This document shows, piece after piece, positions 412 through 42,129 of a DNA stretch of 42,129 nucleotides. Below the pieces are notes generated by a model. The model saw nothing but the letters and a program-made list of their open reading frames with translations. It did no database searches and was not told where the DNA came from. The position numbers and the translations under genes are program-made. The DNA is from a virus, in the UHGV virus genome UHGV-0179013; one strand, given 5' to 3'. Every line of letters begins with the position of its first letter. Position 1 is the stretch's first letter.

Positions 412-654
412 ATGTTCGTGGAACTCGTTTATGACAAAAGGAATTTTGATGGGCTGCCTGGTGCAAAAGATATCATTCTGGGCGAATTGACTAAGAGGGT
501 TCACCGGGTCTTCCCTGATGCTGATGTCCGGGTGAAACCGATGATGACGTTGCCGGCGATCAATACTGACGCCAGCAAGCATGAGAAGGAGCAGATTAGC
601 CGTGTGGTTCAGGAAATGTTTGAAGAAGCAGAGTTCTGGTTAGTGAGTGAGTAA
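412..654 (+). CDS. DinI-family DNA-damage-inducible protein homologue (80 aa)
   Basis: Length and sequence pattern (GELTKRVHRVFPD ... KEQISRVVQEMFEEAEFWLVSE) parallel E. coli DinI (GELSRRIQYAFPD ... QRISEILQETWESADDWFVSE); AGAGGA RBS; LexA-like box upstream. Confidence 0.75.
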   Translation: MFVELVYDKRNFDGLPGAKDIILGELTKRVHRVFPDADVRVKPMMTLPAINTDASKHEKEQISRVVQEMFEEAEFWLVSE

Positions 655-5118: not shown

Positions 5119-6200
5119 GTATTGAATCCCGCCAGGTTCTGGTAGAAGGCATATGGCTGAACGGCGAATGCTTCAGGCGGCATCAGCGTCATGCGTGCAT
5201 GGGTGCCGTAGTCATCGCGCATATAGGTGACTTCTGCCAGTAGCAATTCAGTCTCCGGCAACCGTAAGGTGGGAAGATCAACGGGGATCAATGTGTTTGG
5301 TTCCCACAGTTTCCCGTCTTTATCCCGCCAGGAATCGATGGTTACCGAGAGCTGTTTTGAACGTCCGTACCGCCGGTTCATTTCCCAGTCGATCGCACTT
5401 TGTGCCTGTTGAGTAGCCATCAGGGTACTTTCCACAATCGATATATGTTTTCGGTACCGCATACGGGCGGCCTCCGGATCTCTCGCCGTTGCCAGAGTCA
5501 CAGCGTCATAGGCCGTATCAGGCGAATACCCTGCAATTGGAGAAACGCTCATTGATACACCGACATAATCTGAAAACCTGTCAGCCATCGATTTGCGGTA
5601 GTATGCCTGCTCGACATTTACCCCTTCGGCTATCCCACTCGCCGCACGACGTGTTCCCACCCGGGTCAGTAACAGGTTTCCATCGGGCTGATCGTAGTAA
5701 AGCAGAGCAGACCATCTGGCCACCCGATCGATGACTTCTTGCGGAGACTCACCCCAGTTCAGAGTGAACTGGGGTACCTTCACAAGCTCATCAACATCCG
5801 TGGTTACGGTGATGCCGTAGTAGGATGCCAGGCGAGAAGCAATTTCAAGTGCATTACTGGCATTAATGACGTTGTTAGGCCACTCAGCTGAGCAATCCAC
5901 CAGGTCCTGACATTTGCTCCTGCCCGTGGCGCGGACCTCATGGCGGGAGCGCGATAGTGCGGGTTCCCAGTCATCAACATATCCCGTCAGTGTCAGATCA
6001 TCTCCGATACGAACTTCACAAGACATTCCCTCTTCAACGAGTTGACGATCTTCGTTGCCAGGGAAGTAATCCATTAGCCCAAGATCGAAATCAGAGGGAA
6101 AACGCTCAATACCCCGCGTTACCCGGACAGAATCCCACCCCTCGATGATTTTGCCGTCGACCGTCAAAGAAACAACATCCAGATCGCTGTCTGCATTCAT
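5115..6200 (-). CDS. Baseplate hub / tail protein (Mu gp44-like, P2 gpD-like)
   Basis: 361 aa; synteny between DNA-circulation-like gene and V-like gene. Confidence 0.45.
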   Translation of the reverse strand: MNADSDLDVVSLTVDGKIIEGWDSVRVTRGIERFPSDFDLGLMDYFPGNEDRQLVEEGMSCEVRIGDDLTLTGYVDDWEPALSRSRHEVRATGRSKCQDLVDCSAEWPNNVINASNALEIASRLASYYGITVTTDVDELVKVPQFTLNWGESPQEVIDRVARWSALLYYDQPDGNLLLTRVGTRRAASGIAEGVNVEQAYYRKSMADRFSDYVGVSMSVSPIAGYSPDTAYDAVTLATARDPEAARMRYRKHISIVESTLMATQQAQSAIDWEMNRRYGRSKQLSVTIDSWRDKDGKLWEPNTLIPVDLPTLRLPETELLLAEVTYMRDDYGTHARMTLMPPEAFAVQPYAFYQNLAGFNT

Positions 6201-26092: not shown

Positions 26093-26127
26093 CAATGAAT
26101 AACATGCTAATAAGCAAGGATAAGGCG

Positions 26128-27213
26128 ATGGCGAGTGTAGACTTTAGCTTTGAAGGACTTCTAATAGAGAGAATTATCGCACACAGAGTTTTTCCTAAAA
26201 GTGCTGATAAAACCTTAACTCCCCCAAAAACCAGCAAATTTTTAATGGCATTCAAACAAGATGCATTAGATGCTTTTCAGGTGAGGATTACTGAGGCCTT
26301 AGCAAGTAAATCTCATGGAATTGAAATGTCTATTGGTGGTGTTGGTGATGATTGTTTTTTGAATCTGTCGGCTTCAACGTTTTCTAATGATACAGAGCAC
26401 TTCATCAAGGTTACAGAACGACTTGCAAGTAAACTTAGCGAGGCACAATACAACAGTTCTGCCCCTGGTGGGATATTGGCTGTATTGTCAGGGCGCGTAG
26501 GAAATGACTCACTTCCATTCCTTGCGGTAATAAAAGCTGAAACCCAAAATGGTTTTAGAACTATTGAAAATGATGAGCAGGTGACAATGGAGTTTATTGC
26601 TGAGCTTCTTTTAACTCCAGCGCAACGTTTTTATAAGATTGGTTTTATAGTCCAAACTATTGCTTTACCTCCTGATAGTGATGGTAATTATAGCAGCTCA
26701 TCTTATCGTGCATTTTTGTTTGACCATTTAATGACATCGACAGAAACAAAAAACGCCGCCGGATATTTCTACTCTCGATTTTTAGATATGGATATAAGCA
26801 AATCATCAAAAAAACTTACTCAAGATTTTTTTGAGAATACTAGGGACTTCATTAATACCGCACAAATAGAGGAAAGTAATAAACTTGCGCTGCATGAGGC
26901 TTTAAGAAGTGAAATGCGCTCAAGAAAGACCACATTAAGCACTGCGGATTTCGCAGAAACCAACCTCCCAGAAGAAATGCAGGGGGAGTATTTGGATTTT
27001 ATGAAGAACAAAAGCTTCCCTGCTGCCGCAGTAACTAAAGACAATGGTTATATTGAATCCAAATTAAAAATAAGAAGCAAGCTCGTATTCTCCAATGATG
27101 TATGGGTTTCCGTACCGCCAGATCAATTAAAAAATCTTGTGGAAATTATCCCGTCGGATGATAATGAATCAACGATTTTGAAAATAAAAGGGCGACTTAA
27201 AAGTCAACAATAA
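26128..27213 (+). CDS. Cassette gene A: 361-aa protein with YejK/NdpA (NA37 nucleoid-associated protein)-like features
   Basis: ATG at 26128 behind AAGGATAAGG RBS (ORF-track start 26095 lacks an RBS). Segments SAPGGILAVLSGRVGNDSLPFLAVIKAE and C-terminal ESTILKIKGR parallel E. coli YejK ([40 protein letters not shown]). Very AT-rich; stop overlaps gene B start (TAATG). Confidence 0.45.
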   Translation: MASVDFSFEGLLIERIIAHRVFPKSADKTLTPPKTSKFLMAFKQDALDAFQVRITEALASKSHGIEMSIGGVGDDCFLNLSASTFSNDTEHFIKVTERLASKLSEAQYNSSAPGGILAVLSGRVGNDSLPFLAVIKAETQNGFRTIENDEQVTMEFIAELLLTPAQRFYKIGFIVQTIALPPDSDGNYSSSSYRAFLFDHLMTSTETKNAAGYFYSRFLDMDISKSSKKLTQDFFENTRDFINTAQIEESNKLALHEALRSEMRSRKTTLSTADFAETNLPEEMQGEYLDFMKNKSFPAAAVTKDNGYIESKLKIRSKLVFSNDVWVSVPPDQLKNLVEIIPSDDNESTILKIKGRLKSQQ

Positions 27214-28205
27214 TGGATATCAATGAGTTCCGTGAGTTTTTACAGGCAAACCAGGATGCTTACGCAGCTTGGGGGCAGTTTGTGTCTGAAGAAATTTACA
27301 GTACTCTTTGTAGCTCTCTAGGGGATGACAAAGCCAAGCTCTTTCTAAAGATCCACTCAGAACCAAGACTAAAAAGTATAGCCTCGGCATTAGGAAAGGT
27401 CAGCCGTAAAGGATATGACAATCCAGTAGTGCAAATGACTGATTTGATTGGTGTACGCTTTGTAGTTCTACTCTCTGTTGAAATCAGAGCTATCAGTGAA
27501 ATAATTGAAAACTGTGATAAATGGGATGCGACTGTTTCTAAAGACTATTTATCAGAGATTGATGTTAACCCCAAAATTTTTGACTATCAATCGCGGCATT
27601 ATGAGGTAAGGCCTAAAGCTCAATTCGATTACTGTGGACAAAGCATAACGCCTGAAATGTGCTGCGAAGTTCAAGTTAGAACATTGCTTCAGCATGCCTA
27701 TGCTGAATTAGTCCATGATAGCGTCTACAAGCCTTCCGGTGATGTACCAAAATCTGCTGAAAGGCAAATAGCGCGTAGCATGGCCTTAATGGAAACAACG
27801 GATGATCTTTTTTGCAAAACAATGGAAATCTTGGCTGACAATAGCAAAGAGAGAAATGAGCTTTTAGAATTTCTTTCAGGATATTACGCAGAAAAAATAG
27901 GGAGGCAGTATATTGATGAAGATTTGCATGTTAACTTCTCCGTCATTGACACCTTTAAAGACCACATTGACGACAACTTACCAAATAAAATACACACACT
28001 TCTCAGTGAGAAAAAATACATCTCTGCACGGATAATTAATAGAGTTGAATACAATCCTCTATTCACTCAACCATGTATATTATTTGTGTACTGGTTAGCA
28101 AGCCAGATAGACTCAGGGGAAATGCTTTCAACATGGCCCCTGCCGGGCAATATTAGTGGGCTGGAGATGGTGCTAAGTGATTTAGGGAAAAGTATTTCTC
28201 GTTAG
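27213..28205 (+). CDS. Cassette gene B: RelA/SpoT-type nucleotide pyrophosphokinase (synthetase-fold) domain protein with about 150-aa C-terminal extension of unknown function; candidate toxSAS-like effector
   Basis: Synthetase motifs in order: RLKSIASALGKVSRK, DLIGVRFVV, DYQSRHYEV, EVQVRTLLQHAYAELVHDSVYK; compare RelQ RVKSPESIIEKLERK, DIAGLRVV, GYRSYHLVV, EIQIRTLAMNFWATIEHSLNYK. Translationally coupled to gene A. Confidence 0.7.
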   Translation: MDINEFREFLQANQDAYAAWGQFVSEEIYSTLCSSLGDDKAKLFLKIHSEPRLKSIASALGKVSRKGYDNPVVQMTDLIGVRFVVLLSVEIRAISEIIENCDKWDATVSKDYLSEIDVNPKIFDYQSRHYEVRPKAQFDYCGQSITPEMCCEVQVRTLLQHAYAELVHDSVYKPSGDVPKSAERQIARSMALMETTDDLFCKTMEILADNSKERNELLEFLSGYYAEKIGRQYIDEDLHVNFSVIDTFKDHIDDNLPNKIHTLLSEKKYISARIINRVEYNPLFTQPCILFVYWLASQIDSGEMLSTWPLPGNISGLEMVLSDLGKSISR

Positions 28206-32229: not shown

Positions 32230-32534
32230 TGCCCCCCCTCCCACTGCCATGACGGCATCAAAACAAAGCCCATAGGATCGCTGACCTTTGCACACCTAAC
32301 ATCACCTGGCTGCACAATCTCCATCCCGATGTATCCGGCACAAAGTAAGAGCTCAAGAGCAATGAAAAGCTCATCAACGGAGCAACAGCAGAATTCTGCG
32401 AATTCCGATACACTGAGATAACGAAAACCTGAACAATCGCAGCTACCGGACATCCAGATGCGGCACATAATCAGGCGATGAAGGGCGCTTTCAAAAGGAT
32501 GTTTATTGATAAAATCAGGGATAGACTTACTCAT
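32226..32534 (-). CDS. Hypothetical Cys-rich small protein
   Basis: 102 aa, stop/start overlapped on both sides; multiple Cys (CDCSGF, CCCS); function unknown. Confidence 0.35.
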   Translation of the reverse strand: MSKSIPDFINKHPFESALHRLIMCRIWMSGSCDCSGFRYLSVSEFAEFCCCSVDELFIALELLLCAGYIGMEIVQPGDVRCAKVSDPMGFVLMPSWQWEGGQ

Positions 32535-33379
32535 GCGGCACCTGCCAACTCTTTGTCGTGGGTAAATTCACCTTTCCAGCGCTTCTTCATCGGAAGATGC
32601 CCCTTGAGATAGTGTCGGTAAATCCATACCGCGCCTTTGCGCAGAAGGATCGGTTTGAATGTGTCACGCATCTCGCCGTCGTCCTGTTCTACTTGACCAG
32701 AACGCTCACTGAGGTAGAGATCGCGTGCATAGTGATGAACCCGCCAGCGCGGATATTTAGCCTTTGGCTGGTCGTCGTAGAGCCAGTTATGTTCGAACAA
32801 AAACGCATTAACCTGCTGGACGTTGACGCCGTTCAGCTGCTTACAGAACTGGCAAGGAGACATACCCGGCTGAAAGAGGTTTTCCAGGTGCTCGATGTAC
32901 TTTGCCTGTCGCTCGACGTATCCAAGCGCACGCCGGGCAGCTTCACGTTCGTCAGCCCATGCACGCGCAGCAGCCACCTCATCTGAGAAATCAGGCAGAT
33001 CTGAGTTAACCGCCACCAGCTTACCTGTGCGAAAGTCGAGGAAGGTCTGATTCACCTGCAAGCGGAATACTGGTGAGATCCACCCGGCATACTCAATGGC
33101 CAGCAGTTCGTGAGCGAAAGTGCCGCCATTCCTGCCTTCGTCTGAAACTATGCAAATCTGCACAGTTTCTTTTTCCAGCTCAGCGATTAGCGATTTAGCA
33201 GTTTGAGTGCGCAACCACTGGGCAGGGGCTTTGTTAGCACCAAGCCCACTCGCCTTGTGCAAAGCATTCAGGTTAAAACGCCCCTCAGCATCGGTAGTGA
33301 TTTCCACACCTGCAATAACAGGTAGGCTTTCAGCACCATTACTTGAATTATTCAGATGTTTATTGATATTATTTTTCAC
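32531..33379 (-). CDS. KilA-N domain protein with C-terminal ANT-like antirepressor domain
   Basis: 282 aa; N-terminal VIAGVEITTDAEGRFNLNALHKASG pattern of KilA-N domains; C-terminal region typical of phage antirepressor C-domains. Confidence 0.6.
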   Translation of the reverse strand: MKNNINKHLNNSSNGAESLPVIAGVEITTDAEGRFNLNALHKASGLGANKAPAQWLRTQTAKSLIAELEKETVQICIVSDEGRNGGTFAHELLAIEYAGWISPVFRLQVNQTFLDFRTGKLVAVNSDLPDFSDEVAAARAWADEREAARRALGYVERQAKYIEHLENLFQPGMSPCQFCKQLNGVNVQQVNAFLFEHNWLYDDQPKAKYPRWRVHHYARDLYLSERSGQVEQDDGEMRDTFKPILLRKGAVWIYRHYLKGHLPMKKRWKGEFTHDKELAGAA

Positions 33380-33694: not shown

Positions 33695-34174
33695 TTATCC
33701 CCTCCAGAACATCAAATGAGACAGGATATGGAAAACCCGATCGCTAAACTTGCGCTTAACTACTGGTACAAAGTGCTTATTGCTGGCGGATTCTTTGTCT
33801 TCTTGGTGAATGGAACCGGGATCCTCACTGCATACCCGACAGCAGGTACTGGACTCATTTCCCTTGGTTGCGCTTTGTGGGGAGTCGGCGAATGGATTAA
33901 CCACCCCTACCAGGAGGTATTGATCCCCGGAGTTTTTGGCCGACCATCCGGGAAGCTGTCCGGTTACCCCAGAAAAGTCAGCTTGGCCGGTATTGCCTTC
34001 GATGTTATCGGTGGCGCCCTTATCGTCTTTGGAATTGTTAAATTGTTCCAATGACCACCCAATTAGACTTACACCCCCAGTAGCTGGATCGATAACTACA
34101 GACCCAGGAAACTTACGCTCAAGATCAACCAGCATCATCCTTAGCGCCTCAAGGTCAGAATATCGCTGTGGCAT
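33695..34174 (-). CDS. Hypothetical early protein immediately downstream of cro (159 aa)
   Basis: ATG at 34174 behind GAGGTG RBS, 2 nt after the Cro-like stop; low-complexity Gly/Ser/Asp-rich middle; fully overlapped by a membrane-like antisense ORF. Confidence 0.4.
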   Translation of the reverse strand: MPQRYSDLEALRMMLVDLERKFPGSVVIDPATGGVSLIGWSLEQFNNSKDDKGATDNIEGNTGQADFSGVTGQLPGWSAKNSGDQYLLVGVVNPFADSPQSATKGNESSTCCRVCSEDPGSIHQEDKESASNKHFVPVVKRKFSDRVFHILSHLMFWRG

Positions 34175-34175
34175 G

Positions 34176-34415
34176 TCACACCTCTGCGCTTCTATTCCTC
34201 AATGGAGAAAAAATGAGATTTTCTTTTTTCAAACTGAGGTTGGGGGAAACCTTAGATACAGCAACCTCAATACGTGAGGCCATTGCTACAGATGGACGAC
34301 GGAACCCTAAAGCCATTTGATTTAAGTAAGCGACGCTCGTGCCCGATAGTTGAGCCAACTGCTTCCACTCATCTGTAGTCATAACGTCCCTGATTGAGAG
34401 CAATCCTCTATACAT
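34176..34415 (-). CDS. Cro-like HTH transcriptional regulator
   Basis: 79 aa from ATG at 34415 (GGAGG RBS), or 68 aa from ATG at 34382; HTH segment WKQLAQLSGTSVAYLNQMALGFRRPSVAMASRIEV; divergent from repressor gene across the operator region. Confidence 0.65.
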   Translation of the reverse strand: MYRGLLSIRDVMTTDEWKQLAQLSGTSVAYLNQMALGFRRPSVAMASRIEVAVSKVSPNLSLKKENLIFSPLRNRSAEV

Positions 34416-34440
34416 GTTACCTCCCGCTCTGTATTCATTA

Positions 34441-34507
34441 TTAGCAACGTGCTAACATTAGCACACCACCAAACAATGTAGCAATACGCTACAAAGCACA
34501 TTGCTAA
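34441..34507. promoter_or_regulatory. Immunity-region operator cluster with TTAGCA/TGCTAA half-sites
   Basis: TTAGCAacgTGCTAA (34441-34455), TTAGCA (34459), TGTAGCAatacGCTACA (34478-34494), TGCTAA (34502) in the 105-bp divergent cro/repressor intergenic region. Confidence 0.5.
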
Positions 34508-34520
34508 CAAAGGGGCCAAC

Positions 34521-34976
34521 ATGGAAATCAAAGATATTCGATTAAATAACCTACAATCAGTAATTCAACGCAGCGGTTTAACGCAGACTGAATTGGCTTT
34601 GAAATGTGATATATCTCCTTCACTTATCAGCCAGATAATGACTAAACGCAGAAATATGGGGACCGCTTTTGCCCGGAAACTGGAAGGTAGGCTAAATCTT
34701 TCAGAAGGGTGGTTTGACATGCCTCACTCCCTGCTAGACTCGCCGTGGCATCTGGCAAAAATGGGAGAAAAAGACAATCTAGTGGCTGGTCAAGAACAAC
34801 CATTAAACAAAAGAGAGAGCCGTCTTGTAGAGCTATTCAGACAGATGCCTGAAAGCGAAAAAGACAGAATAATAAATGATTTAGCACAAAAAAAACGAGA
34901 TTTTGACAAACTTCTTGATGAACTAATGGCCGTGAAAGCTGCAAAGATGCCAATTGATAAAAATGAAAATGAATAA
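34521..34976 (+). CDS. CI-like prophage repressor, XRE-type HTH, without S24 peptidase (non-autocleavable) domain
   Basis: 151 aa; N-terminal HTH LTQTELALKCDISPSLISQIM; C-terminal part is charged/coiled-coil-like with no Ser-Lys peptidase motif; AAGGGG RBS. Confidence 0.65.
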   Translation: MEIKDIRLNNLQSVIQRSGLTQTELALKCDISPSLISQIMTKRRNMGTAFARKLEGRLNLSEGWFDMPHSLLDSPWHLAKMGEKDNLVAGQEQPLNKRESRLVELFRQMPESEKDRIINDLAQKKRDFDKLLDELMAVKAAKMPIDKNENE

Positions 34977-35001
34977 TAAAAACATTGTGTTATAAAAAAA
35001 C

Positions 35002-35023
35002 AGCAAAATATTAGCATTTTGCT
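35002..35023. terminator. Hairpin AGCAAAAT-ATTAGC-ATTTTGCT after repressor gene (possible terminator; loop carries an operator half-site)
   Basis: Perfect 8-bp inverted repeat preceded by an A7 run; loop sequence ATTAGC matches the TTAGCA operator half-site. Confidence 0.3.
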
Positions 35024-35024
35024 A

Positions 35025-35085
35025 TTGTCAAAATTAACGCGCAGCGCTACATTCACCTCATCCAGTAAATTAGTGAGGTGAATGT
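35025..35085 (+). promoter_or_regulatory. Candidate promoter (TTGTCA-17 bp-TACATT) overlapped by a perfect 13-bp inverted repeat TACATTCACCTCA-N11-TGAGGTGAATGTA that covers the -10, RBS and start region of the downstream gene
   Basis: Inverted repeat arms at 35048-35060 and 35074-35086; right arm contains the GAGGTG Shine-Dalgarno. Confidence 0.45.
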
Positions 35086-35086
35086 A

Positions 35087-35533
35087 ATGTTCAGTACAAA
35101 TCACGACCCAAGATCAATTAATTCTCTTTTGCTTTGTGCTCAGGTAGCGTTATTGAATGGTTCTGTTTCAAATATCGATATTATCAATGTTTTAGACGTA
35201 GCGCAGGACCTAATTTCATTAACCGTCACCAGCTCGGCTGATAATGAAATAAGCGCCACTAATTCAAACAAAGAACAACCCACACCACGATACGCTCCTT
35301 ACACTGGCAGTATTAACATTGGTCAACGCATACGACTGGCACGCAAATACTCTGACCTAAAACAGAGCCATATAGCTAACGCTTTAGGGGTAACCATTCA
35401 AGCGGTGTCCTTATGGGAAAATGACTCAACAGTTCCCACCTGCGACAAAATTATCCCACTGGCTAACGTACTTAAATGCGATCCGATGTGGTTATTATCA
35501 GGTGCTCCTTTAGAAGTCACAGAGGAATCCTGA
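35087..35533 (+). CDS. Hypothetical protein with C-terminal XRE-type HTH domain (148 aa)
   Basis: ATG at 35087 behind GAGGTG (ORF-track start 35078 is GTG); HTH IGQRIRLARKYSDLKQSHIANALGVTIQAVSLWEN; AT-rich locus downstream of repressor (rex-like position). Confidence 0.5.
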   Translation: MFSTNHDPRSINSLLLCAQVALLNGSVSNIDIINVLDVAQDLISLTVTSSADNEISATNSNKEQPTPRYAPYTGSINIGQRIRLARKYSDLKQSHIANALGVTIQAVSLWENDSTVPTCDKIIPLANVLKCDPMWLLSGAPLEVTEES

Positions 35534-35955
35534 TGATGAAAACCCATGTTGAAATGTTGGAAAGCATCGCAGCTGATATTGTGGAAAACACCTCGTTACT
35601 TGAGGTTATTTACCGCATCAATGAATTGCCACCAGAAGCCGATAATGCAATTGCTTGCCTTATTCGCTCAATGCAGAAAACGCTGGATGGTGTTAATGAG
35701 TATGTTTCGATGTTACCCACTACTACTCGAGGTGATAAAGCAAAAGATAGAATCGATATTGATGATATCGCTGATGATGTATTTAATGTGACTATTACAG
35801 TGAACCAGCTTAACGAACTGGCACATATATACAATGAGTCATATTTCACCGATAAAGATAGTGACGATCCAAAATGCCTGATGTCAGCAACAATTTATGA
35901 CTACGCAAGAAAAGTTAAGGATGAACTGAAAACCATCGAAACTAAATTAGGTTAA
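35533..35955 (+). CDS. Hypothetical acidic protein (140 aa), coupled to upstream HTH gene
   Basis: Start overlaps upstream stop (ATGATGA context); AT-rich; no recognisable motif. Confidence 0.4.
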   Translation: MMKTHVEMLESIAADIVENTSLLEVIYRINELPPEADNAIACLIRSMQKTLDGVNEYVSMLPTTTRGDKAKDRIDIDDIADDVFNVTITVNQLNELAHIYNESYFTDKDSDDPKCLMSATIYDYARKVKDELKTIETKLG

Positions 35956-36010
35956 TAAATAAAATTTTTAATAACGCCTTAATCGGTGGGACATCACTCA
36001 CCCTGAGGAA

Positions 36011-36307
36011 ATGCAAATGAATATTATCGTCAGAAATGAAGTCGTGAATAACAAAGCCCATCCAGCCAATCAGGATGACGACATTCTTTACATAAACAAA
36101 GCCCACAAAACAGCAGAGTGTGCCAATAAATATGCACATGAACTCCGTGCTGAATTTACCCAGTTGCTTATGCCAGCAATCACACGCACTGATGTGAAGG
36201 TAGCGGGAAGATTCACCTCATTACTTAATGAGCTTTGCTTCATGACAAAAATGACGATGGAGAACACCTCAAAGGGGGGGGGCAATAATGACGTTTCTGA
36301 AAGATAA
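36011..36307 (+). CDS. Hypothetical early protein (98 aa)
   Basis: ATG behind GAGGA RBS; AT-rich. Confidence 0.4.
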   Translation: MQMNIIVRNEVVNNKAHPANQDDDILYINKAHKTAECANKYAHELRAEFTQLLMPAITRTDVKVAGRFTSLLNELCFMTKMTMENTSKGGGNNDVSER

Positions 36308-36400
36308 AGCAGCACACAAGACAGCAAAACTTTTCGCCTCTTATGGAAATAGTTATCTGCATATTGCAAACCTTTTTCTGCGCAAGGCTTACGGGCGGTA

Positions 36401-36763
36401 GTGACAATGAAAAACAACATCATTGAAATTTATCGCCGCCGCATTGCTATTGCGACATTAAACCGAATGAAGCGCAAGACAGGAGGTTATTGTCTCTCCG
36501 TAAATATGCCCGATGACAATATTCAGGTTATCGAGATTAACGAAGAATCAATGCTGAAACTTTTGCTGCGCTTCGAAAAACAGGCTCGGACTGAATTCAA
36601 CACAGAAGCGGAAACATTTCTTCGCCAGACGTATATGAAAAGCGTCGATATCAATGGACACACCGAATATCTGACCGAAACCGGAAAGATGATTGTTGAC
36701 GAGATTTTTGCGGAATTAATTAAACACGCGAAAGAGAAATACGTATGTGGAGGAATTAACTGA
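36401..36763 (+). CDS. Hypothetical early protein (120 aa)
   Basis: ORF in early-left operon; stop overlaps next ATG (TGATG). Confidence 0.4.
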   Translation: MTMKNNIIEIYRRRIAIATLNRMKRKTGGYCLSVNMPDDNIQVIEINEESMLKLLLRFEKQARTEFNTEAETFLRQTYMKSVDINGHTEYLTETGKMIVDEIFAELIKHAKEKYVCGGIN

Positions 36764-37013
36764 TGGCCTCACAACAAACAATTATTCACGGAATGCAGAT
36801 CCCCCCCCAGTCCTCAACGTGGATCTGCATGTGCTTCCGGATTTCACCGGACGCGTGGTTCTTTACATCGAAAAAGGGCGTGTGACATGCGACCGCCGGC
36901 TGCTCGACGACGAACATATTTGCGCACTGGACACTTTTATCGAAATGGCCCGCGAAGCCGGGTTACGTATACAGGAGCTAACTGGTGGCACTGACAGCAA
37001 TTCGAATACCTGA
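36763..37013 (+). CDS. Hypothetical early protein whose ATG-initiated frame and long ORF are separated by a C8 homopolymer (frameshift or sequencing error or phase-variable)
   Basis: ATG at 36763 coupled to upstream stop; after C8 (36801-36808) this frame stops after 39 codons, whereas a +1 C would join it to the 88-codon ORF 36747-37013, which itself has only a GTG start. Confidence 0.3.
36801..36808. repeat. Homopolymer tract C8 at a reading-frame junction
   Basis: Eight consecutive C at 36801-36808. Confidence 0.9.
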
Positions 37014-37199
37014 ACGCGTACACCTGCAGGCGATGCAGGTCCTGCTGCGATACCGACGGAAGCGAGTATATGCACGACGTATGCGACGCACCGGATTTCT
37101 CAGTCTGAAGGTTAATCCGCGCTGGCGGATGCTATCGAAAGACAATGGCCGCAATTGGGAAGTAATGAGTCATAAAACGTATAACGGAGAATTAAAACG

Positions 37200-37706
37200 A
37201 TGAGTACCAACAAAAACGACAACGTAAAGCAGCTAGTTGCCCGACTGAAAGAAATGCAGGAGCAGTCCGGTACGCACATCCCCGCGTGGATGCTCGATGA
37301 AAATCGTTACGGCAAAGGTGCTCTGACAACTGAAGAACAGCATGAATGGGCTGAAACCGTTTGTCACTCCATGCGCGGAACTGTCGCCCTGCTTTACCTG
37401 ATTGAATGCGAAAAGCGCTGGGGACTTCGTGACGGTGAGTATCAGTTTAAAACCGGTGAGTTTGTTTTTGGCTTAACGCGGCAGCTTATCGAGAACCTGC
37501 TTATTGAACACGTAGAAGGCGCACTGATCGAGAAAAAACCGCAGGAGCGATATCTGGCTGTATTCCAGTTCTACTCCGCCAACGATCAGCGCCTGAAAGA
37601 AGACGGTCATTCGTGGTTCAGCGGTTTTCTCGACGAGATGTTTATGGATCTTGCTGTTCGGTTACGTGTCGGCGAAGCAATACCCGTTCAACACATTTTG
37701 CACTGA
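37200..37706 (+). CDS. Hypothetical early protein (168 aa)
   Basis: Long ORF in early-left operon; no recognisable motif. Confidence 0.45.
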   Translation: MSTNKNDNVKQLVARLKEMQEQSGTHIPAWMLDENRYGKGALTTEEQHEWAETVCHSMRGTVALLYLIECEKRWGLRDGEYQFKTGEFVFGLTRQLIENLLIEHVEGALIEKKPQERYLAVFQFYSANDQRLKEDGHSWFSGFLDEMFMDLAVRLRVGEAIPVQHILH

Positions 37707-37711
37707 GGTAA

Positions 37712-37996
37712 ATGATGATGAAAAACGAACTTATCACTGTGTGGTACATCGTCACATTCATGGTGACTGAAAATGCCGAGCGCCGCGAATATTCAATCTT
37801 TGTCGGCAGTAGTAGCGAAATGGAGGCGGTGGTTTCTGCGACTGCTGGGCTCTGTAAGGGACATGCTGAATTCAGCGAACCAGCATTCAAATCTATCCGC
37901 ATCGCGACCTATGGCGAGGCCGGATCGCTTGATGCAGAACTCGATGCAATTGCCGAACGGGAACAGAAAGAACTGGAGGAAGAAGACAATGAGTAA
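37712..37996 (+). CDS. Hypothetical early protein (94 aa) with acidic C-terminus
   Basis: ORF ending in an overlap with the Bro-N gene start. Confidence 0.4.
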   Translation: MMMKNELITVWYIVTFMVTENAERREYSIFVGSSSEMEAVVSATAGLCKGHAEFSEPAFKSIRIATYGEAGSLDAELDAIAEREQKELEEEDNE

Positions 37997-38747
37997 TCAA
38001 CTGATGAAATTTAACTCGTCGGATCTCGGCATTTCTCTGAGCGGGATGCTTTACCAGGGGAAACCAGTATTTGATGCCGTTGAGCTGGCAAAATCCCTGG
38101 GTTACGCAAATCCGGCTGACGCGCTAAAAACTCACTGCAAGTCATTGATTAAACTTAATTATAGCGAATCGCGAGAATTGGGTTTTAACGACAAAATTCG
38201 TGGCATGCAACTTGCGTCTGAATCTGATGCTTACCGGCTCATTCTCCGTAGCCAGCTTGCTTCCGCTGAACGTGTACAAGACTGGGTATGCGAAGATGTT
38301 CTGCCATCTATCCGCGAAACTGGCAGCTATAGATACCAACGCCCTAAATCTCAGGCGGAGATCATTGCCGAAATGGCTCTGCTGAATGTTGAGCAGGAGC
38401 GTCGCCTTAACCACGTTGAGGACAAGGTCGTTGAGGTTACCGAGCTAGTAGATCATATCGCTCGTGGTGCAACGCCTCCTGGTTGGGCTGGATACTCAGA
38501 ATTGAAAGCACTGTGCGGACTTTCAGATGCAAAGTGTCGCCAGTTAGTATCCGCTTATGACATCGACCATAAGCCTATCCCATTTATTGCGCCTGGAGGA
38601 ACCAAATCCACCATGACCATTGTGCGTGAGCAGCCATTTATGACGGCATTCACCAAAATGATGTTTGAAGCTGAACCTCGAGGCACCCGGTGGTATCACC
38701 CTAAGATGGGGCTGTTCCAGGTGATTGGATGGGATGGTCAACAGTGA
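37989..38747 (+). CDS. Bro-N domain protein (phage antirepressor-like)
   Basis: ATG at 37989 (ORF-track start 37773 is upstream in the same frame); N-terminus MKFNSSDLGISLSGMLYQGKPVFDAVELAKSLGYANPADALKTHCKS fits the Bro-N pattern. Confidence 0.55.
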   Translation: MSNQLMKFNSSDLGISLSGMLYQGKPVFDAVELAKSLGYANPADALKTHCKSLIKLNYSESRELGFNDKIRGMQLASESDAYRLILRSQLASAERVQDWVCEDVLPSIRETGSYRYQRPKSQAEIIAEMALLNVEQERRLNHVEDKVVEVTELVDHIARGATPPGWAGYSELKALCGLSDAKCRQLVSAYDIDHKPIPFIAPGGTKSTMTIVREQPFMTAFTKMMFEAEPRGTRWYHPKMGLFQVIGWDGQQ

Positions 38748-39169
38748 ACAATAATGAAATTTGGGTACCGGTTGGCTCTGTTGAGCTGGCCCACCAGCAA
38801 GCGCTGATATGGGTGTCTGATGCCTACCTGTTCCACTTAGTCAGCATGCATCGTCGCCCGGTGTACCGCCATCAGTACGGGGATATTTCACTAGACCAAC
38901 CAGCCATTAAGAGCTTTATCGATTCGTATTTGGAAGATAAGGGATGGGATATGGAAAAACGCCGTGCCCATTACATCAACATTCTGGACCTCATTAAATA
39001 TATGCACCGCAGTAATTCTGACTTCATCGACTGGGGGACTGTACCAACACTAACCCCAAGGGGCATCCGATGGATGAATGCTTGCTTCTCGCGGCTGGGC
39101 GAAATGGTTAACAGCTATGGTGGATGGGAAAACTACACAAAAGAAACTGCCGGAGATTCAATTTCATGA
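38729..39169 (+). CDS. Hypothetical early protein (146 aa)
   Basis: ORF in operon context. Confidence 0.4.
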   Translation: MGWSTVNNNEIWVPVGSVELAHQQALIWVSDAYLFHLVSMHRRPVYRHQYGDISLDQPAIKSFIDSYLEDKGWDMEKRRAHYINILDLIKYMHRSNSDFIDWGTVPTLTPRGIRWMNACFSRLGEMVNSYGGWENYTKETAGDSIS

Positions 39170-39390
39170 AAATCCAATACCAGGACTATGGCGCCGTAGC
39201 GAACATCGTGATCACCAGCACTGTGTTTGAGTTCCGTAAACATAACCGCGTGGTAGACGCCACGCTGCTCTGCACACCAGGAATAGTTGCAAACCGTAGT
39301 GGAATGTTCTTCATGAAGACGGTTTTGTCCGGAAAATCTCGCGATATGTTACTAGCCTACAAGACAATTCAACGAGAGGCGACACGATGA
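39166..39390 (+). CDS. Hypothetical early protein (about 75 aa)
   Basis: ATG at 39166 overlapping upstream stop. Confidence 0.35.
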   Translation: MKIQYQDYGAVANIVITSTVFEFRKHNRVVDATLLCTPGIVANRSGMFFMKTVLSGKSRDMLLAYKTIQREATR

Positions 39391-40815: not shown

Positions 40816-42129
40816 ATGGATAAAATCACATATCCAACAGGCGTCGAAAACCACGGTGGCAGTCTGCGCATCTGGTTTAATTTTAAAGGTAAGCGCGTCA
40901 GGGAAAACCTCGGTGTCCCTGACACCGCTAAGAACAGGAAGATCGCCGGGGAACTGCGGGTGTCGGTATGCTTTGCCATCCGCACGGGAAGCTTTGATTA
41001 TGCTGAACGGTTTCCAGATTCACCTAACCTTAAAATTTTTGGGTTGGGCAAGAAAGAAATCACAGTGAAAGAACTCGAAGAGAAGTGGCTGGATCTGAAA
41101 AAGATGGAAATCAGCGCGAACGCGCACAAACGGTACGAGTCGGTCGTGGCAGTTGTTGTACCGCTGATCGGGGCTACCCGACTAGTGACAGCGATTGAGA
41201 AAGAAGAGTTGCTGTACATCAGGAAAGAGCTTTTGATGGGTTATCAGTGCGCGGCAAAGGGCAGGATCCCTGTTAAGGGCCGGAGCGCGGTCACCGTCAA
41301 TTACTACATGACGACTATCGCCGGAATGTTCCAGTTCGCCGCCGATAATGGGTACATAAAGGCAAATCCCTTTGATGGAATAAAGCCATTAAAAAGGGCC
41401 AGGGTGGAGCCAGATCCGCTCAGCCGTGATGAATTCATCCGTCTGATAGATGCGTGCCGGCATCAGCAGACGAAAAACATGTGGTCACTGGCGGTGTACA
41501 CAGGTGTTCGTCACGGAGAACTGGTTTCCCTGGCATGGGAAGATATAGACCTTGAAGCGGGTACAATAACAATTCGCCGTAATTATACAAAACTGGGCGA
41601 GTTCACACTACCGAAAACGGACGCCAGTACGGATAGAGTGATACACCTCATTCAGCCAGCCATCGATGCGTTAAGGAATCAGATGGAAATGACTAGACTC
41701 GGGCAGCAGTATCACATCAACGTGCAATTGCGTGAATATGGTCGAACAACGCAGCACAGCTGTACATTTGTCTTTAACCCTAAGATAGTCCGTCGAAGTA
41801 AGGATGTGGGGGTTATCTACAAGGTTGATTCGTTTGGTGACTCGTGGGACGCAGGGTTAAAAAAGGCGGGGATCAGGCATCGAAAAGCTTACCAGTCGCG
41901 CCACACTTACGCGTGCTGGTCACTGGCCGCTGGCGCCAATCCAAGCTTTATAGCCAGTCAGATGGGGCACGCTAGTGCGCAAATGGTTTTCAATGTGTAC
42001 GGCGCATGGATGGCAGACAATAACGCAGAGCAGATCGCAATGCTGAATCAGAAGCTGGGTGATTTTGCCCCATTGATGCCCCATAGACCACAAACTAGCA
42101 GTAGAGGATTATTAAAATCAGTAAGTTAA
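40816..42129 (+). CDS. int: Tyrosine recombinase / phage integrase (lambda-type, with N-terminal arm-binding domain)
   Basis: 437 aa; catalytic-region signatures TGVRHGEL, SRHTYACWSLAAGANPSFIASQMGHAS, NVYGAWM (R, H-x-x-R, Y); stop codon is the last three bases of the window. Confidence 0.9.
   Translation: MDKITYPTGVENHGGSLRIWFNFKGKRVRENLGVPDTAKNRKIAGELRVSVCFAIRTGSFDYAERFPDSPNLKIFGLGKKEITVKELEEKWLDLKKMEISANAHKRYESVVAVVVPLIGATRLVTAIEKEELLYIRKELLMGYQCAAKGRIPVKGRSAVTVNYYMTTIAGMFQFAADNGYIKANPFDGIKPLKRARVEPDPLSRDEFIRLIDACRHQQTKNMWSLAVYTGVRHGELVSLAWEDIDLEAGTITIRRNYTKLGEFTLPKTDASTDRVIHLIQPAIDALRNQMEMTRLGQQYHINVQLREYGRTTQHSCTFVFNPKIVRRSKDVGVIYKVDSFGDSWDAGLKKAGIRHRKAYQSRHTYACWSLAAGANPSFIASQMGHASAQMVFNVYGAWMADNNAEQIAMLNQKLGDFAPLMPHRPQTSSRGLLKSVS

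Follow-up and report, generated by a model that had tools for sequence, protein, structure and literature searches.

Results and Discussion

The viral genome UHGV-0179013 was analysed as one stretch of 42,129 nucleotides (nt), hereafter the window, and the present study concerns positions 34977-35955, where two small genes encoding proteins of 148 and 139 or 140 amino acids (aa) follow a prophage repressor gene. We favour, at roughly even confidence, a reading of this stretch as an OL/PL-type control region together with the two leading genes of a lambdoid prophage's early-left operon, in which a hairpin that masks the Shine-Dalgarno (SD) sequence of the first gene would insulate the operon from read-through of the repressor gene. 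The components so read, an OL/PL region and fold-back translational insulation, are of known kinds, and they are attached to an unstudied family of modular regulators.

According to this mechanism, the repressor and/or Cro would act at an operator, TAGCATTTTGCTA, beside the -35 hexamer and so control the promoter TTGTCA-17-TACATT. In the lysogen, repressor transcripts would enter the gap, there being no terminator between the repressor gene and the promoter, and in this read-through RNA the two arms of an inverted repeat would pair into a stem of 13-14 bp that hides the SD sequence and leaves the 148-aa gene untranslated. The untranslated, C-rich open reading frame (ORF) may then let Rho end the transcript; it is the only one of six left-operon ORFs with more C than G (ratio 1.29, with a peak of 2.4 at 35220-35299). 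Upon derepression, RNA polymerase would start near 35060 and produce an mRNA that does not include the first arm, leaving the ribosome site open. The features on which this reading draws are as follows, HTH denoting a helix-turn-helix domain.

34176-34415, minus strand: cro-like 79-aa gene, divergent from the repressor gene, with replication and KilA-N genes behind it
34442-34454, 34479-34491 and 34494-34506, repressor/cro intergenic region: three OR-like operator copies, TAGCA-N3-TGCTA (at least 9 of 10 positions)
34521-34976, plus strand: 151-aa prophage repressor gene, with an N-terminal HTH and without an S24 peptidase domain, transcribed toward the 148-aa gene
35012-35024: OL-like fourth operator copy, TAGCATTTTGCTA (10 of 10 positions), adjoining the -35 hexamer and centred at about -42 from the predicted start
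35025-35053, plus strand: predicted sigma-70-type promoter TTGTCA-17-TACATT (PL-like), found by scan with 9 of 12 matches
35048-35060, plus strand: arm 1, TACATTCACCTCA, covering the -10 hexamer and reaching the predicted start
35074-35086, plus strand: arm 2, TGAGGTGAATGTA, holding the SD sequence GAGG (35075-35078), its last base just before the ATG at 35087
35087-35533, plus strand: 148-aa gene, with a C-terminal XRE HTH
35536-35955 (alternative ATG at 35533), plus strand: 139/140-aa gene, phrog_27579, an acidic four-helix protein

A control region tied to the immunity system

At a threshold of 9 of 10 positions, the motif TAGCA-N3-TGCTA was found at only four sites in the window, three in the repressor/cro intergenic region and one at the promoter, and the OR-like copies are conserved in relatives. 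Because the operator at the promoter matches the three repressor/cro copies, as a lambdoid OL-type operator does, the 110-nt gap between the repressor gene and the 148-aa ORF is, to judge from its sequence, an OL/PL-type control region, tied to the immunity system as lambda PL is. The promoter TTGTCA-17-TACATT is one of only two promoter-like sites returned by the promoter scan of 34000-36500; its -10 hexamer is formed by the first six bases of arm 1, and transcription is predicted to start at about 35060, the last base of that arm. In the scan, terminator-like sites were absent from the plus strand throughout 34000-36500, including the stretch after the repressor gene.

The right third of the window is a lambdoid prophage control region, in which plus-strand ORFs are continuous from the repressor gene to an integrase gene (40816-42129). 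The repressor matches only HTH_3 in Pfam, together with phrog_5736 (E 8e-50), and its residues 91-139 are similar to the C-terminus of DicA at E 6e-8, a match under the cutoff; by its domain content it is a short, DicA/Gifsy-like form that does not carry a cleavage domain. The two genes had been described in the earlier note as a strongly AT-rich pair. Their GC content is indeed low (33-44%, compared with 50% for the whole window), and the AT-rich block is wider than the pair, extending from about 34200 to 36800 and taking in the repressor gene as well as the subsequent ORFs. The host probably belongs to Citrobacter or is closely related to it. Megablast against the phage collection gave no closely matching DNA for the locus, and two scans of genome contigs for relatives confirmed none.

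The inverted repeat and its predicted fold in read-through RNA

The 13-bp perfect inverted repeat reported previously is present, at 35048-35060 and 35074-35086, and its arms are 100% complementary. It is the longest perfect short-range inverted repeat of the window, and a length of 13 bp was reached in none of 30 shuffles. The spacer between the arms is 13 nt and not the 11 nt first given, although the loop is 11 nt if one extra G-U pair is counted. The repeat does extend over the -10 hexamer (TACATT, 35048-35053), the SD sequence and the start region as had been proposed, ending at position -1 relative to the ATG.

In RNA spanning 35040-35100, as would be produced by read-through, the stem formed by arms 1 and 2 has a folding energy of -21.9 kcal/mol (z -5.8), and none of 200 shuffles did as well. 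RNA starting at 35060 is no more structured than its shuffles (z +1.35), and the unpaired share of the SD/start region rises from 8% in read-through RNA to 41% in RNA from the predicted start. Because arm 1 is the -10 element of the promoter belonging to the 148-aa gene, the hairpin could form only in transcripts that come from the repressor gene; arm 1 would be present only in RNA begun upstream, and RNA from the predicted start would not contain it. Of the two functions suggested earlier for the repeat, a hairpin that sequesters the ribosome binding site is thus the one that we favour, with the restriction that it would operate in read-through RNA only. The stem is not an intrinsic terminator because no U-tract follows it, the next bases being AUGUUCAGUAC. 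A search of Rfam returned only a spurious mir-2319 match elsewhere (24 bits against a gathering value of 89).

An imperfect second pair of arm-like 9-mers, arranged in reversed order as TGATGTGAAGGTA-N5-AAGATTCACCTCA, lies at 36190-36220 within a 98-aa ORF and is likewise conserved at 5535-5565 of the Citrobacter koseri locus L010; it may form a hairpin in RNA, be bound by a protein or be a mere coincidence of the coding sequence.

Conservation among relatives of the same immunity type

Every full-length relative of the 148-aa gene lies directly 3' of a repressor gene. The 91 family members were sorted by their N-terminal module (N-module) into about a dozen types, of which the window represents type A, and the comparison within this type comprised 11 distinct intergenic sequences. 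In all recovered loci, 109-112 nt separate a homologous 151-aa repressor gene from the 148-aa-type gene, and the genes 3' of the latter differ between loci. The gap is far more conserved than its flanks (148-aa proteins 56% identical; E. coli megablast segment 79%). The operator TAGCATTTTGCTA is identical in all 11 gaps, one locus (L098) differing just 5' of it, with GTAGCA in place of TTAGCA, and the -10 hexamer and 17-nt spacing are unchanged, while the -35 hexamer is TTGT-A with C, A or T in fifth position. Arm 2 is invariant across all relatives, and the only changes in arm 1 are two independent C-to-T substitutions, both of which retain G-U pairs. The loop varies in sequence and also in length (13 or 15 nt), and in locus L019 the substitution to G-U comes together with loop changes by which the stem gains two base pairs. 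This pattern of arm and loop variation fits an RNA stem, as far as the alignment can indicate.

A prophage remnant of the same immunity type lies beside ompC in E. coli chromosomes (L001 and L002; repressor 82% identical). It is found in 21 of 5426 complete E. coli genomes and retains the repressor gene, HTH gene, left operon, helicase/primase genes and quuD.

Repeats and terminators in other immunity types

The N-module types differ in what lies between the repressor gene and the next gene, as listed below with representative loci.

Type A (the window): repeat of 14 bp including one G-U, 3' arm over the SD sequence and 5' arm on the -10; repressor gene not followed by a terminator
Type B (phiP27 L10): 15 bp over the SD sequence, 5' arm on or before the predicted -10; no terminator
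Types F and L (L022, L133): 10 and 9 bp over the SD sequence, one position being U-G in F and C-G in L; no terminator
Type E (L057): 12 bp over the SD sequence, predicted start 4 nt inside the 5' arm; no terminator
Type I (L104): 13 bp over the SD sequence, 5' arm on or before the -10, hexamers under the scan threshold; no terminator
Types C, D and K (L030, L023, L124): no such repeat; strong intrinsic terminator
Type G (L028): no repeat; no terminator
Type J (L127): 15 bp over -35 to -10, SD sequence not covered; no terminator

The SD-covering repeats of the other types are unrelated in sequence, and in types F and L the 5' arm is likewise placed at the predicted -10 or ahead of it. Among random positions, 0.25% have a stem of at least 12 bp that ends nearby, and the four SD-covering cases of at least 12 bp among about 10 types are far above chance. 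The split between types with a terminator and types with a repeat is by itself no more than suggestive, with an estimated p of about 0.08. The control region of type K is homologous to that of type E, and K carries a terminator along with a degraded repeat. Should the hairpin work as proposed, an immunity region can keep its maintenance transcript apart from the early-left operon without the help of a terminator.

Among the other members of the family is phiP27 L10 (NP_543062), which likewise stands directly after a repressor gene (L11) and has a 15-bp repeat covering its SD sequence, although its N-terminal module, repressor type and repeat sequence differ from those of the window. Fels-1 and ST64B were considered as studied relatives and set aside, since they have a terminator after the repressor gene and other first left genes. 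In ST64B, two uncharacterised genes 3' of CI are expressed under inducing conditions (PMC7067206).

The 148-aa protein

A C-terminal XRE HTH had been noticed in the 148-aa protein, and the family searches bear this out: residues 82-136 match Pfam HTH_3 (PF01381) at 28.8 bits, above the cutoff of 23. The protein is acidic (pI 4.82), and in its AlphaFold model a disordered linker joins a two-helix hairpin (residues 8-51) to a five-helix, P22-c2-like domain (78-138), with a predicted local distance difference test score (pLDDT) of 92-96 across the HTH domain. Homology and fold searches, which the earlier note had called for, were informative for part of the protein. Residues 77-144 match P22 c2 by sequence (E 2.7e-13) and in Foldseek (template modeling score 0.92 by target, root-mean-square deviation 1.0 A, 33-35% identity), and residues 6-146 match profile positions 4-144 of 194 in phrog_4836 (E 9.7e-31), while the N-terminal module matched nothing among PDB sequences or folds. 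The domain thus resembles the DNA-binding domains of P22 c2 and the 434 repressor, with the differences that it is C-terminal, follows a two-helix module and is not joined to an S24 domain. The family comprises 21 clusters in Salmonella, Klebsiella, Citrobacter and E. coli/Shigella, and related genes occur in Escherichia phage LMessi and in many prophages (phrog_4836). The name 'CII-like regulator', given to phrog_4836 and to the LMessi gene, is an annotation label and no proof of function. A lambda CII-type activator was rejected, as the 148-aa gene lies in the left operon and not 3' of cro in the early-right operon.

The N-module found in the window is paired with at least five different recognition helices (TIQAVSLWE, HPGDVLTWE, SDHISDWE, PECISDWE and DEEIIIQWE), the allele DEEIIIQWE is paired with four different N-modules, and the HTH allele LDEEIIIQWESGEYEPT is found with any of three different repeats upstream, as well as in a type that has no repeat. 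What the repeat accompanies across loci is the N-module, repressor and gap rather than the HTH. Because HTH alleles shuffle independently of the repeat, which is itself invariant before the five or more recognition helices, the repeat was rejected as an operator of the 148-aa HTH, and the autoregulatory operator proposed in the earlier note is accordingly disfavoured. Several alleles have acidic residues or proline and glycine in the recognition helix, and some family members may therefore not bind DNA.

Across these loci the N-module is linked to the immunity type, whereas the P22-c2-like HTH alleles are exchanged freely, and the 148-aa protein would be an early regulator composed of an immunity-linked N-terminal module and a swappable c2-like HTH. 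Such a pattern points to a possible role in the lysis-lysogeny switch, and it draws attention to a conserved, unnamed family (phiP27 L10, phrog_4836) at a key regulatory position. A broader proposal, which we put forward as speculative and consider unlikely, is that the locus exemplifies a widespread, unstudied switch component of enterobacterial temperate phages, with an immunity-specific N-module that perhaps contacts the cognate repressor, an exchangeable HTH, and a fold-back hairpin, possibly with Rho polarity, in place of a terminator before PL. If the 148-aa protein acts upon either the repressor or the choice between lysis and lysogeny, it would add a new layer of commitment control in phages with cleavable as well as non-cleavable repressors.

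The 139/140-aa protein

The second gene had been described as a coupled gene for an acidic 140-aa protein. The stop codon of the 148-aa ORF (TGA, 35531-35533) does overlap an ATG at 35533, the pI is 4.46, and the gene is probably translationally coupled to the first. The length is less secure: because homologues begin with MKT, a start at the second ATG (35536), giving 139 aa, is probable. The protein belongs to phrog_27579, with 82 clusters in Citrobacter, Kluyvera, Klebsiella, Salmonella and Enterobacter, and is predicted to form four helices. Apart from this family assignment the recommended searches gave little, as no Pfam, NCBIfam, defence or fold match was obtained and the fold search with the model of the protein returned only generic helical-bundle matches (best E 0.058).

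The two halves of the protein recombine. The N-terminal half (phrog_6882) occurs as a free-standing 63-aa protein in E. coli relatives (L001, 7106-7485), and these small two-helix proteins share a pattern, judged by eye, with the N-modules of the HTH family. Together these sequences suggest that the early-left region draws on a pool of interchangeable helical-hairpin modules.

Three phages carry the 140-aa family behind a classic CI repressor, at or near the head of the leftward gene string: it is the leading ORF in the Klebsiella phage ST16-OXA48phi5.3 and one of the first three in phage EKP1 and Escherichia phage Fraca, and a 148-aa-type gene is absent from all of them. The HTH gene in turn has different next genes in E. 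coli, Salmonella, Klebsiella and C. koseri. The two genes are therefore not an obligate pair.

Potential alternative explanations

Several observations weigh against the favoured reading. The predicted start at about 35060 is placed from the hexamers alone, and Rho-dependent ends may exist downstream of the repressor gene. Within type A, 11 of the 13 core pairs are invariant and no two-sided compensatory change was seen, which makes covariation uninformative, and SD accessibility, as measured by partition function, was too noisy for the types to be told apart cleanly. Type G has neither repeat nor terminator, and the long repeat of type J covers the promoter core and not the SD sequence. In phiP27 each arm of the repeat is a copy of GTWACTNNRGTATCA, a 15-bp element that recurs in the OR region of this phage, and that repeat could therefore be two operators; the arm-like 9-mers at 36190-36220 could likewise indicate a DNA-binding protein. 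Finally, a single operator centred at about -42 could activate the promoter instead of repressing it, and lambda OR2 lies at about that distance from both PR and PRM.

Some of these observations would be accommodated if the inverted repeat were a duplex-DNA operator, with a phage protein other than the repressor (Cro-like, or the 148-aa protein through a non-canonical contact) binding both arms to shut the promoter. A perfect palindrome overlapping the -10 and the +1 is what such a site might look like, and the phiP27 element, type J and the conserved second pair of 9-mers agree with it. We nevertheless consider this explanation unlikely. The arm centres are 26-28 bp apart, and the change of spacer from 13 to 15 nt with identical arms would rotate one arm by about 70 degrees relative to the other; both observed substitutions break the palindrome and keep G-U pairing; and differences in the HTH recognition helix are not matched by differences in the repeat. 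Furthermore, the stretch between the repressor and cro-like genes, in which a protein of Cro type should act as well, contains no arm-like site (with up to 3 mismatches), and the opposite order of the 9-mers at 36190-36220 means that one dimer geometry cannot suit both sites. The repeat might instead serve the repressor mRNA as a 3' stabiliser, a site of pausing or weak termination, or an RNase III site, the masking of the SD sequence being incidental. A stable stem 72-110 nt 3' of the repressor stop codon, conserved together with the repressor gene where no other terminator was found, is compatible with such a role, to which we give little credence: no U-tract follows the stem, and at least five unrelated sequence types place the 3' arm on the SD sequence of the next gene, 0-10 nt from the start codon, which a 3' end would not need.

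The two genes themselves had been likened to lysogen-expressed exclusion or defence genes such as rexAB; on such a reading they would be expressed either with the repressor gene or from their own promoter activated by the repressor at -42. They do lie directly 3' of the repressor gene, on the same strand and in AT-rich DNA, the operator centre at about -42 permits activation geometrically, given the geometry of lambda PRM, and there are generic HTH matches to the RmrA models of PADLOC. Against this, the hairpin would block translation from the very transcript that rexAB-type genes use, the near-consensus -35 indicates a promoter that needs no activator, the HTH gene and the 140-aa gene are not a conserved pair, and no terminator separates them from the remaining left operon. 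In PADLOC the 148-aa protein matched only generic HTH models (RmrA, HTH_VI) and the 140-aa protein had one weak match, PDC-M46A (E 0.0024), with no RexA or RexB and no defence-specific family; nor is there a RexB-like membrane component, both proteins being acidic and predicted to be soluble and helical. With an operator-bearing promoter of their own and a masked SD sequence in read-through RNA, the two genes lend no support to the proposal of a rex-like pair, which we regard as improbable, and to judge from these features a lysogen-expressed role for them is unlikely. Map position after a repressor gene should not by itself lead to a 'rex-like' annotation. A type II toxin-antitoxin module, composed of an HTH antitoxin and a small toxin, is very improbable. 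The genes are small and overlapping, the first encodes an XRE HTH, and the antitoxin families MqsA, HipB and HigA are matched weakly, under the threshold; however, the partner gene is not conserved with the HTH gene, the 140-aa protein has no toxin family or fold match, and the HTH gene always accompanies a phage repressor gene.

Comparison with known systems

The locus resembles lambda OL/PL in that the repressor gene is transcribed toward an early-left promoter bearing the operator motif of the repressor/cro region, and in that the left operon reaches xis/int. It differs in having one strong operator where lambda has three, a repressor without an S24 cleavage domain, and an HTH protein rather than N as the first product of the left operon. 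In lambda, a terminator ends the PRM (cI-rexA-rexB) transcript before PL; the window has neither rex genes nor a terminator between the repressor gene and the promoter, and the SD-masking hairpin appears to provide the insulation. To lambda RexAB itself the two genes are alike only in map position after the repressor gene, as they have no sequence or fold similarity, no membrane protein, an operator-bearing promoter and a predicted block of translation from the repressor transcript.

The nearest parallel for the hairpin is the fold-back inhibition of the IS10 (Tn10) transposase reportedly described by Davis, Simons and Kleckner in 1985, in which read-in transcripts are said to be translationally silent. 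Both have an inverted repeat whose 3' arm lies over the ribosome site, as arm 2 does over the SD sequence and start region here. In IS10 the start of the element's own transcript lies between the arms, and the start predicted for the 148-aa gene would have the corresponding position. The window differs in being a phage immunity region, in which the incoming RNA would be the repressor message of the phage itself instead of fortuitous host transcription, and the present case is a prediction from sequence. If the reading is correct, a phage would be using a device of insertion sequences against outside transcription, and this device would recur with unrelated sequences in several immunity types.

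As in phages with Gifsy/DicA-type repressors (PMC3121763), the repressor of the window is short and non-cleavable, and a LexA box lies by a dinI homologue at the far end of the prophage. Gifsy-type SOS-controlled antirepressors are located outside the immunity region (PMC3121763). Nothing links the 148-aa or 140-aa protein to GfoA or GftA, whose sequences were not in the comparison.

Other features of the window

The near-consensus LexA box, TACTGTATATGCATCCAGTA, is at 377-396, between the dinI homologue (412-654, plus strand; Pfam DinI, E 1.5e-18) and a divergent 110-aa ORF (333-4, minus strand) that has no family match. By analogy this region resembles the SOS-controlled dinI/antirepressor modules of Gifsy phages, and it could serve to inactivate the non-cleavable 151-aa repressor. 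Antirepressor-type genes are also present elsewhere, namely a KilA-N/ANT gene in the early-right operon (32531-33379) and a Bro-N gene in the left operon (37773-38747). The left operon from about 36408 to 39390 is 79% identical to part of the left operon of Fels-1, a part that holds the antirepressor gene fsoA (PMC3121763).

Close to where the 98-aa ORF ends, a G9 homopolymer (36273-36281) is conserved; in the C. koseri relative, which shares it, a 1-nt indel just before it gives a different reading frame past the run; the tract may be a slippage or phase-variable site, or it may be error-prone. Just 5' of the phrog_1737 gene, a small ORF (36299-36400) ends in LFLRKAYG(R/K), and the same ending is found in the E. 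coli relative (L001, 7568-7666). Finally, a two-gene plus-strand island at 26095-28205 stands among minus-strand genes and encodes a 372-aa NA37 nucleoid-associated-like protein and, in an overlapping gene, a 330-aa protein with a RelA/SpoT domain (Pfam E 1.6e-16; PADLOC PDC-S33, E 5e-12). This island is a more plausible candidate for a lysogen-expressed accessory or defence function than the 148-aa/140-aa pair.

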